A stretch of DNA of 64,000 nucleotides, from assembly GCA_964550425.1 (NCBI GenBank), contig CAZJZB010000002.1, positions 1,626-65,625 on the forward strand, in the 5' to 3' direction. The notes under the pieces are model-generated. The model worked only from the letters and a program-made list of their open reading frames with translations. It was not told where the DNA came from and made no database searches. The stretch is from an uncultured Candidatus Saccharibacteria bacterium. Its GTDB lineage: Bacteria; Patescibacteriota; Minisyncoccia; Phycocordibacterales; Phycocordibacteraceae. The position numbers and the translations under genes are program-made. Below are positions 652-9,379 of the stretch, piece by piece (the first letter of the stretch is position 1; every line of letters begins with the position of its first letter).

Positions 652-725
652 GCAAGCGTAGCTCAGTTGGTAGAGCACCCGACTGATACTCGGGCGGTCG
701 TAGGTTCGACCCCTACCGCTTGCAC
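652..725 (+). tRNA. tRNA-Ile (anticodon GAU)
   Basis: Canonical cloverleaf read directly. Acceptor is GCAAGCG/CGCTTGC, D-arm is GCTCAGTTGGTAGAGC, and the anticodon stem CCCGA/TCGGG carries loop CTGATAC (anticodon GAT). The T-arm is GTAGG-TTCGACC-CCTAC with discriminator C. CCA is not encoded. Confidence 0.85.
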
Positions 726-728
726 TAT

Positions 729-1286
729 ATGCACAAAATAACCAACACCTTCAGTAAGGAACCACAGGCGACGCTAGACCTGATAGCGACGTATGACCCG
801 CGAGTCATATCCTGGCTGGATAACAAAGTTAATCTGTTGTTAACTGACTATTTAGGAATAAGAAACTCGCCGTACGGGATTGTTAATATGAGTGACTATT
901 CATACTTGATTACTCCTGCTTTCAAAGCTCTCGAGGGTACCCTAATTCAAATTGCGCGAGAACTCGGTCTTAATGTCGAAAAGGCGGATATAAGAATAGG
1001 AGTAGTTTTTAGTGAGGAGAATCTTGAAATGTTTTACCAGGATGTATTGAATCAAATTGAAGATTTATCAAAAGAATCCAAGGCCGATATCACAATGTGG
1101 CTTAATGACGCACGTCGTTTTCTTCGTCATTTTCGTCATTCGCCAGCCCACTACGGTGGAGATACTAAACAGAACTGGGATCAAGCTTTTGCTGATGGTG
1201 ACCACGTGTTACGAATAATCAATGGTATGTGTTCCGTTTTGTTAGAAAGTGGGGTTTTTGAAAAAGCGAAAACCAAAAAGACGTAG
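729..1286 (+). CDS. hypothetical protein (185 aa) with a possible HEPN-like Rx4H motif (RRFLRH) near the C-terminus
   Basis: ORF track 720..1286 (TTG); the first ATG is at 729. Amino-acid composition is protein-like. It has motif NDARRFLRHFRHSPAHYGG and sits between the tRNA-Ile gene and tRNA-Ile fragments. The stop TAG at 1284-1286 lies inside a tRNA-like CGTAGCTCAG segment. Confidence 0.5.
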   Translation: MHKITNTFSKEPQATLDLIATYDPRVISWLDNKVNLLLTDYLGIRNSPYGIVNMSDYSYLITPAFKALEGTLIQIARELGLNVEKADIRIGVVFSEENLEMFYQDVLNQIEDLSKESKADITMWLNDARRFLRHFRHSPAHYGGDTKQNWDQAFADGDHVLRIINGMCSVLLESGVFEKAKTKKT

Positions 1287-2176: not shown

Positions 2177-3931
2177 ATGGATGCAAAAGCGCATTTTCAT
2201 GGGAAGCGCATTACCGTGATGGGTCTCGGCCTCTTGGGCCGTGGCGTGGGGGATGCGCGGTATCTGGCCGAATGCGGTGCGGAGCTCATTGTGACCGACC
2301 TTAAAACGCGTGAGGAGCTCGCAGAATCGGTAGCGCAGTTGGAGTCATTCTCAAACATCACATTTATCTTTGGCGAACACCGACTCGAAGATTTCCGCGA
2401 CCGCGATCTCATCCTTAAGGCCGCAGGCGTTCCCTTTGATTCGCCCTATATTGCGGAGGCGAAGAAACACAAGATACCGGTCCGCATGAGCGCTGATTTA
2501 TTTGCGGAGATCTCAAAGATTTCCATCATCGGCGTGACGGGCACCCGCGGCAAATCGACCGTGGCGCACATGGTGTACGCCATTCTCAAAGAAGCCGGAA
2601 GGAAGGCCGTGCTCGGGGGGAACGTGCGCGGTGTTTCAAATCTTGAACTGTTAAAAGAGGTTACATCAGAACATACTGCCGTACTTGAACTTGACTCGTG
2701 GCAGCTACAAGGGTGGGGCGACGCGAAGATGAGCCCATATATCGCGGTATTTACCACACTCTACCCGGATCATTTGAACTATTATGGTTCGACTTCGCTC
2801 ACCACAGGCACGAACAATCTGGATGCATATTTAGCGGACAAAGCGAATATCTTCCGCTTCCAGAAGCCCGCGGATACGCTCATACTCGGCAAGCAGTGTG
2901 CACCGACTATCATTGATACGTACGGCGAGCAGATTGAATCAAAAACGTCCATCATTGACGAGACGAAGATTCCTGATACCTGGGTTCTGAAGGTTCCCGG
3001 GATGCATAATCGTTACGACGCCGCACTCGCGCTCGCTGCCGCTCGCGCGGCCGGCGCCCCTGACGAGACGAGCCGTAAGGCGCTCGAGGTGTTTGTCGGC
3101 GTCCCGGGCCGACTTGAGCTCGTGAGGGAGGTGAAAGGCGTGAAGATATATAACGACACTACCTCAACCACGCCAGAGGCAACACTTGCTGCACTCTCTG
3201 CGTTCGATCCGGCGCACACAATACTGGTCATGGGAGGCGCCGATAAGATCCTCGACATGGAAGTGCTGCTCGCACGTCTTCCAGAAACAAAGAAAGTCAT
3301 TGCGCTCGCCGGCAGTGGTACGGAACGTATCAAAAGCCAGTTGCCAGAAGGTACGGTGACGTACCATTCTATCTTTGATGCAACCGCCGCTGCGCTCTGC
3401 GCTGCCGGGCTTGGCGACATCGTCCTTCTCTCGCCGGCATTTGCTTCATTTGGCATGTTCAAGAACGAATTTGATCGCGGGGATCAGTTCAATACGCTGA
3501 TTCGCAACATACCCGATATAAGCTTGCTCAAGCCGAAAGTCAGAGAACTCGCAGGTCGGTTGATTACAGAGTGCGAGCGGCGAGGATTCGCCGTTGTTGT
3601 TTCTCGGGCGTTCCGCACATCCGAGGAGCAGGACGAATTCTATGCGCAGGGACGGACGAAATCGGGAGCAATCATCACTATGGCACAGGGAGGTTCATCT
3701 TTTCATAACTACGGAGTCGCATTTGATATAAAGCCAATAGTCACAGACGGCGATGAAAAGACGAGAGCGGAGCTATACCGGAAAGCGGGGAAGATTGGCA
3801 TGGACCTCGGGCTTGAATGGGGCGGGATCTGGAAAGAATTTGTAGATCCACCACACTTTCAGTACACAGCCGGGTACTCGATCGAGGACTTTAAAAATGG
3901 TCGAATAGAAGAGGAAAAATTTTCCCTATGA
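2177..3931 (+). CDS. murD: UDP-N-acetylmuramoylalanine--D-glutamate ligase (MurD) fused to a C-terminal peptidase M15 (CwlK/VanY-like, L-Ala-D-Glu peptidase-type) domain
   Basis: The N-terminal about 440 aa is a Mur ligase (ITVMGLGLLGRG Rossmann-like, GVTGTRGKST P-loop, MurD-like architecture). The C-terminal about 130 aa has the M15 SxHxxGxAxD (SFHNYGVAFD) and W...H (LEWGGIW...PPHFQ) motifs. Confidence 0.8.
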   Translation: MDAKAHFHGKRITVMGLGLLGRGVGDARYLAECGAELIVTDLKTREELAESVAQLESFSNITFIFGEHRLEDFRDRDLILKAAGVPFDSPYIAEAKKHKIPVRMSADLFAEISKISIIGVTGTRGKSTVAHMVYAILKEAGRKAVLGGNVRGVSNLELLKEVTSEHTAVLELDSWQLQGWGDAKMSPYIAVFTTLYPDHLNYYGSTSLTTGTNNLDAYLADKANIFRFQKPADTLILGKQCAPTIIDTYGEQIESKTSIIDETKIPDTWVLKVPGMHNRYDAALALAAARAAGAPDETSRKALEVFVGVPGRLELVREVKGVKIYNDTTSTTPEATLAALSAFDPAHTILVMGGADKILDMEVLLARLPETKKVIALAGSGTERIKSQLPEGTVTYHSIFDATAAALCAAGLGDIVLLSPAFASFGMFKNEFDRGDQFNTLIRNIPDISLLKPKVRELAGRLITECERRGFAVVVSRAFRTSEEQDEFYAQGRTKSGAIITMAQGGSSFHNYGVAFDIKPIVTDGDEKTRAELYRKAGKIGMDLGLEWGGIWKEFVDPPHFQYTAGYSIEDFKNGRIEEEKFSL

Positions 3932-5939: not shown

Positions 5940-6092
5940 ATGTCTCGCGCAGGCACTCTCATCCTTCTGGGCGTTCTTGTCATCCTCGTACCTTTTTCGG
6001 GACTTCCGTCATCTATTCGTTCGTTGCTTGCGGTCATACTCGGCGTGTGTGTCCTCTGTATCGGCCTCATACTTCGGGCTCGGAGTGAGTGA
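5940..6092 (+). CDS. hypothetical small membrane protein (50 aa, two hydrophobic segments)
   Basis: ATG at 5940, MSRAGTLILLGVLVILVPFSG...VCVLCIGLILRARSE*. Fills the gap between rsmI and the ATPase gene. Below the track's 60-aa cutoff. Confidence 0.25.
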   Translation: MSRAGTLILLGVLVILVPFSGLPSSIRSLLAVILGVCVLCIGLILRARSE

Positions 6093-6113
6093 TTTTTGCT
6101 ATACTAAAACGTA

Positions 6114-7952
6114 ATGGAAAACCCAGAACGCGTTACCTACTTCGCGGCAACTGATTCGCGGGGGAAGTATGTGCCTTTCGGCATCAAGGCGAAGGACCGG
6201 GACCGCCACATGTACGTTATCGGCAAAACCGGCATGGGCAAGTCGACCTTGCTCGAGAACATGGCGATCCAGGATCTCAGGAACGGCGAAGGATTCGCTT
6301 TCATTGATCCGCACGGGGGAACCGTCGACCGGCTTCTCGATTATATTCCCGAAGACCGCATACAGGACGTGGTGTACTTCGCTCCGTTCGATCTAGAGCA
6401 TCCTATCGCGTTCAATGTGATGGAGGACGTCGGTTACGACAAGCGCCACCTCGTCGTGAGCGGCCTCATGGCGACTTTCAAGAAGATATGGGTAGACGCA
6501 TGGAGTTCCCGCATGGAGTACATTCTCACGAACACACTCCTTGCTCTGCTTGAGTATCCGGGCGCGACTCTTTTGGGCGTGAACCGCATGTATACGGACA
6601 AAGAGTATAGGAAAAAAGTCGTTGAAAACGTGAAAGATCCGGTCGTGAAGGACTTCTGGACGAAGGAGTACGCGGTCTACACTGACCGTTACACGCAGGA
6701 GGCGACGCCCGCCATCCAGAACAAAGTCGGCCAATTTACCGGCAACCCGCTCATCAGGAACATTATCGGGCAGCCGAAATCCTCATTTGATATTCGCACG
6801 ATGATGGACGAGAAGAAAATACTCATCATCAATCTTTCCAAGGGTCTCGTGGGAGAGACCAATATGCGGCTTCTCGGTTCCATGCTCACGACGCGCATAT
6901 TCCTCGCCGCGATGAGCCGTGCGAATCTTCCCGCCGAAGGCCTCAAGAAGCTCCCGAATTTTTATTTCTATGTTGATGAGTTCCAGAATTTCGCGAACGA
7001 GACCTTCGCGGAGATCCTCTCTGAGGCGCGCAAATATAAATTGAATCTCGTCATTGCGCATCAGTACATAGAGCAGATGGAAGAAGAAGTGCGCGATGCC
7101 GTCTTCGGCAACGTAGGCACGACAATCGTCTTCCGGGTGGGGCCTTTTGACGCCGAAGTGCTGGAGACCATTTTCATGCCAAGGTTCACGAAGGAGGACG
7201 TCGTCGTACTCGATCGCCGGCAGATATATCTCACGCTCATGATAGACGGGGTCGGATCGGAACCTTTCTCAGCGGTAACGATTCCTCCGATAGAGCCGCC
7301 ACCTTCCTCTCACAGAGAAAAAGTACTCGCCTCATCGCGCACGCAATTCACCGCGCTGCGCGCCGGAGTCGAGAAAACCATTATGGAAGAACTCGCTGCA
7401 AGCGGATTCTCCGAACCCGCGCCCGAAGCGCGGATGCGCAGAAAACCGACAGGTACAAATCCGCCCCTCCGTCAGAGTGCGGAACCGGTCAAATCGTTTA
7501 TGCCCCGCGAAGCGACTGGGTCCGTGCCGCTCGTGCAGGCGAAACATACTGTTGCGCCTCCTGTGAGTACGCGTCCGAATCTGCCGGTAAAAAACATCGC
7601 TACTTTTCCAGCAAAAAACATTCCCGTCTCCGGCGGGAAATCATCAGAAGACCTGAAGTCGATCCTGCGCACCATGACTGCGAAGACCGGCGCGGAGAGG
7701 GAAGAGAAGAAATCACAAAACCAACAGTCCCTCAAAGGAGTTCTTGCGGACGTATTAACGCGAGGTGAGCAACCGAAGAAAGCGCAACAATCCACGCCGG
7801 CCCGGCCGCCTTTGGAGGCCCCGCCGCAGCAGAATCTTCTTGCAGCAGCTCCAGCGACAGTCGGCACCTCGTCAAGTGTCCCGATGCGCGAGAAAAAGCC
7901 CTTCGAGGTTTCCGAAGATACGCTCCGAAAGGTGTTCAAAGACGAGACATAA
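6114..7952 (+). CDS. TraD/VirD4-like (FtsK/HerA superfamily, DUF87-type) P-loop ATPase with an about 230-aa Pro/Ala/Ser/Gln-rich disordered C-terminal tail
   Basis: Walker A is VIGKTGMGKST and Walker B is FYFYVDEFQNF...LNLVIAHQY. No N-terminal TM segment. The low-complexity tail runs from about 7250 to 7950. Confidence 0.7.
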   Translation: MENPERVTYFAATDSRGKYVPFGIKAKDRDRHMYVIGKTGMGKSTLLENMAIQDLRNGEGFAFIDPHGGTVDRLLDYIPEDRIQDVVYFAPFDLEHPIAFNVMEDVGYDKRHLVVSGLMATFKKIWVDAWSSRMEYILTNTLLALLEYPGATLLGVNRMYTDKEYRKKVVENVKDPVVKDFWTKEYAVYTDRYTQEATPAIQNKVGQFTGNPLIRNIIGQPKSSFDIRTMMDEKKILIINLSKGLVGETNMRLLGSMLTTRIFLAAMSRANLPAEGLKKLPNFYFYVDEFQNFANETFAEILSEARKYKLNLVIAHQYIEQMEEEVRDAVFGNVGTTIVFRVGPFDAEVLETIFMPRFTKEDVVVLDRRQIYLTLMIDGVGSEPFSAVTIPPIEPPPSSHREKVLASSRTQFTALRAGVEKTIMEELAASGFSEPAPEARMRRKPTGTNPPLRQSAEPVKSFMPREATGSVPLVQAKHTVAPPVSTRPNLPVKNIATFPAKNIPVSGGKSSEDLKSILRTMTAKTGAEREEKKSQNQQSLKGVLADVLTRGEQPKKAQQSTPARPPLEAPPQQNLLAAAPATVGTSSSVPMREKKPFEVSEDTLRKVFKDET

Positions 7953-7960
7953 TCATTTTT

Positions 7961-9379
7961 ATGCGCACACTCGGCTTGTTCATGCTAGCCATTCTCTTCC
8001 CTGCGTTTGCTCATGCCTCAGTCATCATCACCGAGATCATGTATGACTATCCCGGCACCGAAGGAAGCGGAGATCATGATTGGGTCGAGATATACAACAA
8101 CGGGCAATCAACGGTTGATCTTGGGGGTTCAACCGTGCGTTTTATGGAACGGGGGAACAATCATATTATTGCGTCGTTCAACGGAAGTTCGACACTACTT
8201 GCACCCGGTGCGGTGGCGGTAATTGCCAACAATCCCACACAGACCAAACTTGATTTCCCGAACATAGGACTCTTGCTTGATAGTTCATTTTCTTTGACGG
8301 GAACTACCACAGCGCTCGGCATCATTATTGACGGCATCAATGTTAGTCCGGTGACCTACACACCCGCACCCAGCGCATCAAATCTCGGCGATTCTCTCCA
8401 ACTGATTAATGGGGCCTGGAGTGCTGCGACACCGACGCCTGGCACGTATGCCGGAACATCTTCTTCCGCTGATGATTCCGGCGATTCTTCGATCTCCTCT
8501 TCCGATTCTTCATCGGTTGTCACAATTCAAACTTCTTCAAGCGGCGCGCCGGCTGAATATCTTCCTATACCGACGCTCCGCATAGTAACCGGGGGCGATC
8601 GTACGGTATCAACAGGAGCAGATACTGTATTCACCGCCGTCGTATATGACGGTAAAGGCAATAAGCGTGATGATGCTACGGTGCTATGGTCGTTTGGCGA
8701 CGGCATGCAGAGAACCGGTGCGAGCGTCTATCACAAGTATTACGATCCAGGCGAATATGTCGCGATTGTGCGCGCCACTACTTCCGACGGCGGAGATGCG
8801 CGAAGCGAAATGGTCATGACGGTGAAGAATGCCGGCATTAAAATTGTTTCAGTATCAACTCGCGGCATCACGCTGGAAAATACAGATTCGCGCATGCTCG
8901 ATCTCTCGCTCTGGCGTCTATCAATGGGCGGAAAAGAATTTAGAATACCGGAGGACACGCAGATTCTCGCCGGCAAGACAATTCTATTTCCGTCGCAGAT
9001 AATTCAACTCCCGATATCAGATACGGCATCGCTTCTGTATCCGAGTGGTGAGGTGGTGTTTGTGTACCCGCCATCGCTTCCAGCGAAGCAACCTTTCACT
9101 CCCGTGTCGAGTTATGAAAAAGTACAGGCGGTCCGCCTTGAGGAAGCTCCGGCGAGACAGGCCGAAGCAATTATCAGTACAAAAACGAACATTCAAACAC
9201 ATGAGGAAGCAGTAGCCGCCCCCGCAGCGACGACAAAGCTCGCCGCTGCGGGGGCGGCATTGCTCCCGTCTCAAGCACCGCCCGTCACCGCACCTGCTTC
9301 TGGTCTTCTCCATTCGCCATGGACACTCAGTTTCCTCGGCATCGTTGCGCTTGCCGCCAGTGCATTCATATTTCTCTAA
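7961..9379 (+). CDS. secreted cell-surface protein with lamin-tail domain(s) and a PKD domain, Ser-rich linker, C-terminal TM anchor
   Basis: Signal peptide MRTLGLFMLAILFPAFAHA. Lamin-tail-domain signature ITEIMYDYPGTEGSGDHDWVEIYN. PKD-like WSFGDG...YHKYYDPGEYVAIVRATTSDGG. C-terminal hydrophobic stretch LSFLGIVALAASAFIFL. Confidence 0.75.
   Translation: MRTLGLFMLAILFPAFAHASVIITEIMYDYPGTEGSGDHDWVEIYNNGQSTVDLGGSTVRFMERGNNHIIASFNGSSTLLAPGAVAVIANNPTQTKLDFPNIGLLLDSSFSLTGTTTALGIIIDGINVSPVTYTPAPSASNLGDSLQLINGAWSAATPTPGTYAGTSSSADDSGDSSISSSDSSSVVTIQTSSSGAPAEYLPIPTLRIVTGGDRTVSTGADTVFTAVVYDGKGNKRDDATVLWSFGDGMQRTGASVYHKYYDPGEYVAIVRATTSDGGDARSEMVMTVKNAGIKIVSVSTRGITLENTDSRMLDLSLWRLSMGGKEFRIPEDTQILAGKTILFPSQIIQLPISDTASLLYPSGEVVFVYPPSLPAKQPFTPVSSYEKVQAVRLEEAPARQAEAIISTKTNIQTHEEAVAAPAATTKLAAAGAALLPSQAPPVTAPASGLLHSPWTLSFLGIVALAASAFIFL

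Follow-up and report, generated by a model that had tools for sequence, protein, structure and literature searches.

We analysed a 64-kb stretch of contig CAZJZB010000002.1 (the window), assigned to an uncultured Candidatus Saccharibacteria bacterium, and focused on two co-directional genes on its plus strand. The first, an open reading frame (ORF) at 6114-7952, encodes an ATPase of 612 amino acids (aa), and the second, at 7961-9379, encodes a surface protein of 472 aa. An earlier note on this DNA had given the same coordinates for both ORFs and had proposed that a coupling-protein-like ATPase and a secreted protein with a lamin-tail domain (LTD) and a PKD domain, encoded 8 bp downstream, could form a DNA-uptake or nucleic-acid-scavenging apparatus. 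The spacing was read correctly, as 8 nucleotides (nt) separate the ATPase stop codon TAA (7950-7952) from the ATG of the surface gene (7961). The ATPase gene is preceded by genes for a MurD-like fusion protein, MurC, an RsmI-like methylase, and a small membrane ORF. The pair is followed by a long run of glycosyltransferase genes with sugar-nucleotide enzymes, an ABC exporter, an MBOAT protein, and an O-antigen-ligase-like protein, and then by MurB and SecA. GC content around the pair (0.52-0.54) resembles that of the flanks, base composition is unremarkable, and the window is ordinary chromosome. Both proteins have homologues in the thousands or hundreds, with E-values far below chance, and close homologues come from metagenome-assembled genomes (MAGs) of Candidatus Kaiserbacteria, Paceibacterota, and Minisyncoccia. 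Our main comparison set consisted of 80 species-level Kaiserbacteria genomes or loci, and a distant set consisted of 80 loci (L081-L160) whose ATPase is 53 to 76% identical to that of the window.

Pfam, AlphaFold2 (AF2), Foldseek, and sequence motifs agree that the ATPase core (aa 1-395; 6114-7298, plus strand) is a P-loop motor of the FtsK/HerA superfamily with the TrwB/VirD4 fold. Walker A (GKTGMGKS) lies at aa 37-44 and Walker B (FYFYVDE) at aa 283-289. The Pfam family TrwB_AAD_bind scored 36.6 bits (cut-off, 20.5), with aa 26-343 aligned to profile positions 11-311 of 387, and TraG-D_C (29.6 bits; cut-off, 22), T4SS-DNA_transf (24.4; 20.1), and DUF87 (24.7; 23.2) also exceeded their cut-offs. 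An AF2 model of aa 1-440 built from a diverse alignment reached a predicted local distance difference test score (pLDDT) of 90.2 and a predicted template modelling score (pTM) of 0.89. The full-length model, for which the alignment was shallow and limited to close orthologues, was poor (pLDDT, 50; pTM, 0.36) and was not used for the fold search. The best Foldseek match in the PDB was TrwB (1e9s; E-value, 1.5e-13; TM-score, 0.59-0.63; ∼15% identity over ∼420 aligned columns), followed by HerA, Cag-beta, DotL, and the C-terminal domain of VirB4. In the AF2 core, a helical insert at aa ∼108-232 of the nucleotide-binding domain is the counterpart of the all-alpha domain of TrwB. The prediction that the protein is coupling-protein-like and lacks a transmembrane anchor was borne out, since the maximum 19-residue Kyte-Doolittle mean is only 1.15. 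The start of the protein, MENPERVTYF, is conserved across 50 orthologues, with Walker A already at aa 37. The ATPase therefore has the fold of type IV coupling proteins (T4CPs) minus their defining N-terminal membrane domain. It shares with TrwB, VirD4, and TraD the nucleotide-binding domain with its inserted all-alpha domain, the Walker motifs, and three T4CP Pfam families above cut-off. In addition to the missing membrane domain and the low identity to TrwB, it differs from them in that it is unlinked to relaxase or type IV secretion system (T4SS) genes in the window and in annotated related loci, is chromosomal, near-universal in its phylum, and extremely conserved, and carries a long disordered tether with short conserved motifs. 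The NCBIfam T4CP models also set it apart, as all of them scored far below cut-off (best, conju_CD1115, 49.6 versus 250; SXT_TraD, 42.8 versus 366).

The family to which this ATPase belongs is very large, with 21,533 clusters at 50% identity having an E-value of 1e-3 or less and 5,715 having an E-value of 1e-30 or less. More than 8000 close homologues in Patescibacteria carry the name [quoted passage not shown]. According to Quinonero-Coronel et al. 2025 (PMC12102498), 5,713 VirD4-like T4CP homologues occur in 2,918 of 3,035 Patescibacteria genomes (∼96%), 148 of them near virB4. The same paper reports that epibiotic growth of S. epibionticum does not require its homologue and leaves the function of the family open. 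This non-essentiality does not discriminate between the explanations considered here. The ATPase of the window is one of these near-universal orphan T4CP homologues and belongs to a family that is known but uncharacterised.

Among the 80 Kaiserbacteria species, the ATPase core has a median identity of 89% (range, 84.5 to 94%), compared with medians of 70% for MurC, 70% for RsmI, and 53% for the first glycosyltransferase, GT1. Such conservation bears on the idea that the gene is the remnant of an integrative conjugative element (ICE) or belongs to a HerA- or MADS-type anti-phage defence system. The ATPase weakly matched the PADLOC model mad8 (7.6e-16) and HerA models, and it had the above-mentioned NCBIfam matches to conjugative TraD and CD1115 models, with scores far under their cut-offs. 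However, the ORF inventory of the 64-kb window holds murein, glycan, SecA, and MurB genes only and contains no VirB4, VirB6, relaxase, or integrase gene. No tRNA-flanked island or compositional anomaly was found around the ATPase gene, and no MADS or HerA partner genes adjoin it. The absence of these ICE genes together with the ordinary base composition excludes an obvious ICE, the alternative that the earlier note had named. Furthermore, presence in ∼96% of the genomes of the phylum (PMC12102498), the high identity between species, and the housekeeping surroundings are the opposite of what is seen for mobile or defence genes. An ICE or defence origin is thus scarcely credible, and we regard both as refuted.

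The core is followed by a basic, disordered tether (aa 396-612; 7299-7952, plus strand), delineated from the alignment of 50 orthologues and from helix prediction. It had been described as a P/A/S/Q-rich low-complexity tail of about 230 aa. The tail is indeed rich in P (12.5%), A (10%), and S (10%), with E, T, and K at ∼8% each, but it spans ∼210 aa, contains only ∼5% Q, and is interrupted by three conserved islands. Its net charge is +12 (isoelectric point [pI], 10.1), and its median identity is 37% versus 89% for the core. The islands, separated by hypervariable P-rich linkers, are a helical extension (aa ∼396-445), a central segment (aa 509-550, KSSEDLKSILRTMTAK...SLKGVLADVL in the window and KS(A/S)EDLKxILRTMTAK...SLKGALAxVL across orthologues), and a C-terminal peptide (aa 595-612, KPFEVSEDTLRKVFKDET in the window and KPFEV(S/P)EDxLRKV(L/F)K across orthologues). 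Helices were predicted at the islands (401-430, 512-550, and 601-608), and the rest of the tail was of low confidence in the poor full-length model. In the wider family, tails range from ∼100 to ∼520 aa and are diverse in composition, yet they end in one of two conserved motifs, E(V/I)PEDxLRKxL or LKPGQxIKF, the latter often together with a CxxC-x17-CxxC zinc ribbon.

A globular domain followed by a linker and a C-terminal docking peptide is a design known from the linker and C-terminal peptide of FtsZ, from the tip of SSB, and from the F-plasmid TraD tail that binds TraM. By analogy, the tail of the ATPase can be read as a flexible linker plus a docking peptide. The likeness, which is one of design only, lies in the succession of a conserved globular domain, a hypervariable linker, and a short conserved C-terminal peptide, whereas the motif KPFEVSEDxLRKVLK has a sequence of its own. 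As a side observation, the zinc ribbon (Pfam zf_Tbcl_2, TIGR04272) is located inside the disordered tails of most non-Kaiserbacteria members (for example, P0463, P0486, P0469, P0455, and P0293), and in L153 it forms the C terminus of a separate 567-aa protein (L153:3639-5342) adjoining DUF8128, a domain considered below.

The surface protein consists, from its N terminus, of a signal peptide (aa 1-19, MRTLGLFMLAILFPAFAHA; 7961-8017; hydropathy, 2.14), a head that is an LTD in the window (aa ∼20-165; 8018-8455), a Ser/Asp-rich linker recognised from translation and composition (aa 166-205; 8456-8575), a stalk composed of a PKD domain (aa ∼206-295; 8576-8845) and a second, divergent LTD (aa ∼296-372; 8846-9076), and a linker with a C-terminal transmembrane anchor (9077-9379), all on the plus strand. 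The transmembrane helix (aa 454-472; hydropathy, 2.13) and the signal peptide were called from hydropathy. The secreted, C-terminally anchored LTD/PKD architecture predicted earlier was supported by Pfam, with PF00932 at 66.2 bits (cut-off, 34.3; aa 16-106) and PKD_4 at 38.4 bits (cut-off, 27; aa 210-288); the second LTD had been missed. This second domain is below the Pfam cut-off in the window protein (E-value, 2e-3), has an E-value of 2e-4 in the orthologue P0179, and passes the cut-off in the L153 orthologue (35.4 versus 34.3 bits). The median identity of the PKD domain to its orthologues is 62%. Since the protein ends with its transmembrane helix, with no cytoplasmic residue after it, it offers nothing to a cytoplasmic ATPase.

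Orthologues of the surface protein share the signal peptide, the PKD domain, the second LTD, and the C-terminal anchor but differ in the head. For instance, the window protein and P0179 are identical at 14 of 23 residues of the signal peptide and at 63% of positions over 299 aa of stalk, and the signal peptide is retained whatever the head type. We distinguished three types of head: an LTD, a ComEA-type helix-hairpin-helix (HhH) module, and a FlgD-Ig-like domain. The HhH head corresponds to HHH_3 (7e-21 in P0179) with two canonical GIG hairpins; it is also present in L167 and L168, and some sources name such proteins ComEA. Directly after the ATPase gene, the 80 Kaiserbacteria loci encode an HhH head in ∼45 cases, a FlgD-Ig-like head in ∼11, and an LTD recognised by the hidden Markov model (HMM) of the first LTD in ∼8, and further loci carry a second LTD subtype (INEVAWMG...AEWIELAN). 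Thus, the same chromosomal slot is occupied in most sister species by an HhH-headed surface protein, and short forms composed only of a signal peptide, an HhH module, and an anchor also exist. In the window's own protein, neither Pfam nor HMM searches found an HhH module. As a separate observation, a single 982-aa ORF at L064:5692-8640 spans the ATPase and an HhH-headed surface protein. Either the two are truly fused, in which case the signal peptide would serve as transmembrane anchor, or the reading reflects a frameshift or assembly error.

The HhH-headed variants are very probably surface DNA receptors, and the swap to a ComEA module is the strongest point for a connection of the surface protein with DNA. 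Like ComEA, these orthologues carry HHH_3 and are exported and membrane anchored; the window protein is itself exported and membrane tethered as judged by hydropathy, with an LTD in place of the HhH module. The family differs from ComEA in its C-terminal anchor after a cleaved signal peptide, in its additional PKD and LTD stalk, and in having no com genes nearby. FlgD-Ig heads have no link to DNA, and the LTD head of the window is acidic (pI, 4.06; 3 K/R versus 12 D/E), a composition that argues against simple DNA binding. It is more likely that this head binds something else, or DNA only via cations. In the ExeM-type LTD nucleases, as in the window protein, an N-terminal LTD directly follows the signal peptide, and aa 9-132 gave a weak match to the NCBIfam ExeM model, but the window protein lacks any nuclease or phosphoesterase domain and scored 27.5 against a cut-off of 1300. 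LTD-nuclease fusions have been described in DNA-degrading bacteria (PMC8289736).

Of ∼77 Kaiserbacteria loci that extend far enough downstream, 71 retain the pair, so the prediction of synteny in relatives held at close range. This synteny is not specific to the pair, because the whole block MurC-RsmI-ATPase-surface gene-(epimerase)-GT1-GT2 is conserved in Kaiserbacteria. At longer range the prediction failed: among the 80 distant loci, an LTD-PKD-LTD neighbour was found only in L122, L136, L137, L153, and probably L142, and none had an HhH protein beside the ATPase. The gene downstream of the ATPase in the distant loci was mostly pgk (often with a 4-nt overlap), trmD, mnmA, or groES, so that close spacing, which is usual in genomes this compact, does not indicate partnership. 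The two proteins also evolve at different rates, the median identity being 89% for the ATPase core versus 41% for the C-terminal part of the surface protein. Furthermore, the surface gene was missing or fragmentary next to an intact ATPase gene in L012, L015, L027, L059, L061, L067, L076, and L001. In three of these loci, short ORFs with C-terminal fragments of the surface protein (…ELAAAGAAL…) were located between the intact ATPase gene and the glycosyltransferase genes (L001:8759-9115, L015:8791-9063, and L027:2947-3318) and appear to be pseudogene remnants. The surface gene is thus dispensable and decays while the ATPase gene stays intact.

We also looked for transcription signals around the two genes. 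Across Kaiserbacteria, a conserved extended -10 element, TTTTGnTATACT, ends ∼8 nt before the ATPase ATG; in the window, this promoter-like element (TGcTATACT; 6097-6105, plus strand) ends 8 nt before the ATG. A TATA[ACT]T hexamer ending 5 to 13 nt upstream of the start codon was present for the ATPase gene in 68 of 72 Kaiserbacteria loci and for the surface gene in 10 of 65, against a background of 19 in 4000 random positions. The element is preceded in the window by a hairpin and T-run at 6070-6096 (terminator-like site, 6070-6087), and a terminator hairpin often precedes it across Kaiserbacteria loci. A scan between the ATPase and surface genes found no promoter or terminator. The proximity of the -10 element to the ATG implies a leaderless or near-leaderless mRNA, and the presence of a conserved -10 element before the ATPase gene and not before the surface gene suggests that the two genes are probably co-transcribed from this near-leaderless start. 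Transcription may continue into the glycosyltransferase genes.

Outside Kaiserbacteria, the ATPase has another neighbour. Independent gene calls placed a DUF8128 gene directly upstream of the ATPase gene in L161, L162, L163, L165, and L166, contigs that come from Buchananbacteria, Kerfeldbacteria, Moranbacteria, a MAG labelled "Saccharibacteria", and a 1.08-Mb contig. The DUF8128 protein (427-522 aa) has one N-terminal transmembrane helix and a cytoplasmic domain of ∼400 aa, and its gene is usually preceded by that of a protein with sigma-70 region 4 and a HARE-HTH domain (RNAP-delta-like). With a local HMM, DUF8128 was detected adjacent to and upstream of the ATPase in 33 of 57 distant metagenome loci with enough upstream sequence, and in 4 more of the 57 a short second ATPase paralogue separates the two. 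In addition, longer family members carry an N-terminal extension of ∼350 aa that is DUF8128 (blastp, 1e-24 to 1e-72), as in P0310, P0320, P0338, and others, which links DUF8128 to the ATPase by gene fusion. The surface protein was a neighbour in 0 of 37 DUF8128-linked loci; L153 holds both DUF8128 and an LTD-PKD-LTD gene, at a distance. Conversely, the local HMM found no DUF8128 at the locus in the window or in any of 65 Kaiserbacteria loci with enough upstream sequence. The DUF8128 profile had no match among PDB sequences or in NCBIfam, and a full-text literature search retrieved no paper that mentions DUF8128. Altogether, the conserved partner of the ATPase outside Kaiserbacteria is DUF8128, adjacent or fused, and not the surface protein.

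Two arrangements at these loci deserve mention on their own. The sigma-70-region-4/HARE-HTH, DUF8128, and T4CP-like ATPase genes form a three-gene module, for example at L161:4457-8821, with SecD-SecF just upstream in L161, L162, and L166. Tandem ATPase paralogues downstream of DUF8128, a short tail-less copy (∼435-500 aa) followed by a tail-bearing copy, occur at L141:5848-9018, L147:5316-8555, and L153:5941-10535 and also in L139 and L149, which fits the figure of about two T4CP homologues per genome in PMC12102498.

These neighbourhoods bear on the proposal that the ATPase is a genuine coupling protein of a chromosomal Patescibacteria T4SS whose VirB4 cluster lies elsewhere, with the tether delivering protein or DNA substrates and the surface protein being unrelated. 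T4CPs such as F TraD use their C-terminal tails to bind accessory proteins, and the ATPase belongs to the T4CP family. Moreover, T4CP genes are often far from virB4, and Patescibacteria T4SS clusters lack a coupling protein (PMC10633639 and PMC12102498). On the other hand, PMC12102498 reports that the T4SS of S. epibionticum is essential while the T4CP homologue is not, and the homologues near virB4 are few (148 of 5,713, as given above). The ATPase also lacks a transmembrane domain, no T4SS gene was found in the 64-kb window or in the inspected loci, and the conserved neighbours are DUF8128 and the sigma-70-region-4/HARE-HTH protein rather than T4SS parts. We therefore consider a role in T4SS coupling improbable.

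A refined version of the DNA-uptake proposal would have the surface protein capture DNA, a channel such as ComEC admit it, and a T4CP-like hexamer, docked by its C-terminal peptide, pull the single strand in, thereby replacing ComFA. Several results fit this route: the HHH_3 neighbour with its two GIG hairpins in ∼45 of 80 sister species, the DNA-translocase fold of the ATPase, and the common promoter and 8-nt gap. LTDs are also known in extracellular nucleases (PMC8289736), which the weak ExeM match of the window protein recalls. The com core of the Candidate Phyla Radiation comprises ComEC, DprA, and ComFC, with ComFA not mentioned (PMC10633639), and in S. epibionticum the com genes (PMC10633639) and the T4CP homologue (PMC12102498) are both non-essential. 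Against it, most other ATPase-bearing lineages have no HhH or LTD neighbour, no com gene was seen near the ATPase gene in the inspected loci or the window, and the surface gene has been lost or has decayed in several species that keep an intact ATPase. Furthermore, FlgD-Ig heads do not bind DNA, the LTD head of the window is acidic, the surface protein lacks a cytoplasmic part, and only "some" Patescibacteria MAGs are reported to have ComEA, versus ∼96% of genomes for the ATPase (PMC12102498). We judge this route unlikely. Its most explicit form, in which the pair of Kaiserbacteria and related Paceibacteria would constitute the two ends of a DNA-import route not described before, on the outside a receptor whose heads can be exchanged and on the inside a soluble VirD4-fold hexamer docked to ComEC by its C-terminal peptide as a ComFA-like motor, appears distinctly unlikely to us. 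The ComEA-type heads of sister species thus lend something to the original idea of a DNA-uptake apparatus, and the lineage-restricted pairing, the acidic head, and the decay of the surface gene detract from it; a joint machine is possible rather than demonstrated.

We lean, by a modest degree, toward two genes with separate jobs that are neighbours in Kaiserbacteria and probably co-transcribed, and not toward a dedicated two-part machine. Under this interpretation of separate jobs, the ATPase would be the Kaiserbacteria version of a phylum-wide orphan, T4CP-like cytoplasmic NTPase. By analogy with TrwB, it would most likely act as a hexameric ring on DNA or nucleoprotein at the membrane, and the C-terminal peptide KPFEV(S/P)EDxLRKV(L/F)K may recruit the motor, as a docking peptide, to a membrane partner. 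In most lineages, this partner would be DUF8128; in Kaiserbacteria, where the partner is not nearby, it would be encoded elsewhere or have been replaced. The surface protein would be a secreted receptor with a C-terminal transmembrane anchor, whose constant PKD and LTD stalk displays an exchangeable ligand-binding head (an LTD here, a ComEA-type (HhH)2 module in most sister species, and a FlgD-Ig-like domain in others), and it would evolve independently of the ATPase. Its Ser-rich linkers are probably glycosylated by the products of the adjoining glycosyltransferase cluster, and the Ser/Asp-rich linker may be O-glycosylated.

Three points weigh against a mere neighbourhood of the two genes. 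A functional pair would likewise be expected to be co-transcribed, to be separated by as little as 8 nt, and to persist in most Kaiserbacteria species. The more distant loci L122, L136, L137, and L153 keep the pair without MurC and RsmI upstream, an observation that likewise speaks for DNA uptake. Finally, both proteins are tied to DNA, the ATPase by its T4CP fold and the surface protein by the ComEA head of its orthologues, a coincidence that pure synteny leaves unexplained.

To place these results in context, Patescibacteria represent a large share of bacterial diversity and cannot make nucleotides. According to PMC12102498, nearly every member carries about two orphan ATPases of the coupling-protein type, with a role that is still open. 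Our analysis offers three handles on this role: DUF8128 as a family-wide partner, fused and adjacent and usually with the sigma-70-region-4/HARE-HTH protein upstream; a tether with conserved putative docking peptides; and a lineage in which the ATPase gene is probably co-transcribed with that of a ComEA-like surface DNA receptor. The consulted text of PMC12102498 contains no mention of the adjacency or fusion of DUF8128, the sigma-70-region-4/HARE-HTH neighbour, the tether motifs, or the zinc ribbon, nor of a ComEA/LTD surface protein paired with the ATPase specifically in Kaiserbacteria. More generally, we found no earlier description of the DUF8128 link, of the tether motifs, or of a head-swapping ComEA/LTD/FlgD-Ig protein probably co-transcribed with the ATPase. 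Should the ATPase drive DNA import, the competence motor of the phylum would be identified, as a conjugation coupling protein run in reverse. Should it not, the surface protein would still be a clear case of cassette-like exchange of heads (HhH, LTD, and FlgD-Ig) on a constant stalk, which bears on how epibionts recognise DNA or hosts.

Several features of the surroundings were noted in addition. A 50-aa ORF with two transmembrane helices (MSRAGTLILLGVLVILVPFSGLPSSIRSLLAVILGVCVLCIGLILRARSE) at 5940-6092 (plus strand), unlisted in the ORF list, is kept in 71 Kaiserbacteria loci (45-83% identity), always directly after the RsmI-like methylase gene, even where RsmI and the ATPase are 1.5 to 2 kb apart. 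Its counterpart was called as a gene by some pipelines in L167 (50 aa) and L164 (73 aa). We considered this ORF as a membrane anchor of the ATPase and rejected it, as it travels with RsmI and is absent from the distant loci. Farther upstream, a 188-aa ORF at 720-1286 (plus strand) matches the DNA-binding domain of the RNase LS/RnlA toxin (PF19034; 32.2 bits; cut-off, 27); it had no PADLOC match, and no other gene of a defence or toxin type was seen in the vicinity of the locus. Directly behind the surface-protein gene begins a very large, near-unbroken, co-directional cluster for cell-surface glycans (9419-59675), and the Ser-rich linkers of the surface protein could plausibly be glycosylated. 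The cluster contains many GT4 glycosyltransferases, dTDP-rhamnose genes, NeuB/Pse-like nonulosonic-acid genes, a carbamoyltransferase-like protein, an ABC exporter, an MBOAT acyltransferase, and an O-antigen-ligase-like/TPR protein. Lastly, the MurD-like ligase encoded at 2177-3931 (plus strand; 584 aa) has a C-terminal extension (…SRAFRTSEEQDEFYAQGR…HNYGVAFD…) that resembles, by eye, a D-Ala-D-Ala carboxypeptidase/peptidase M15-type domain. Such a fusion would be unusual, and in the relatives L164 and L167, MurD is a separate protein of 427-436 aa.

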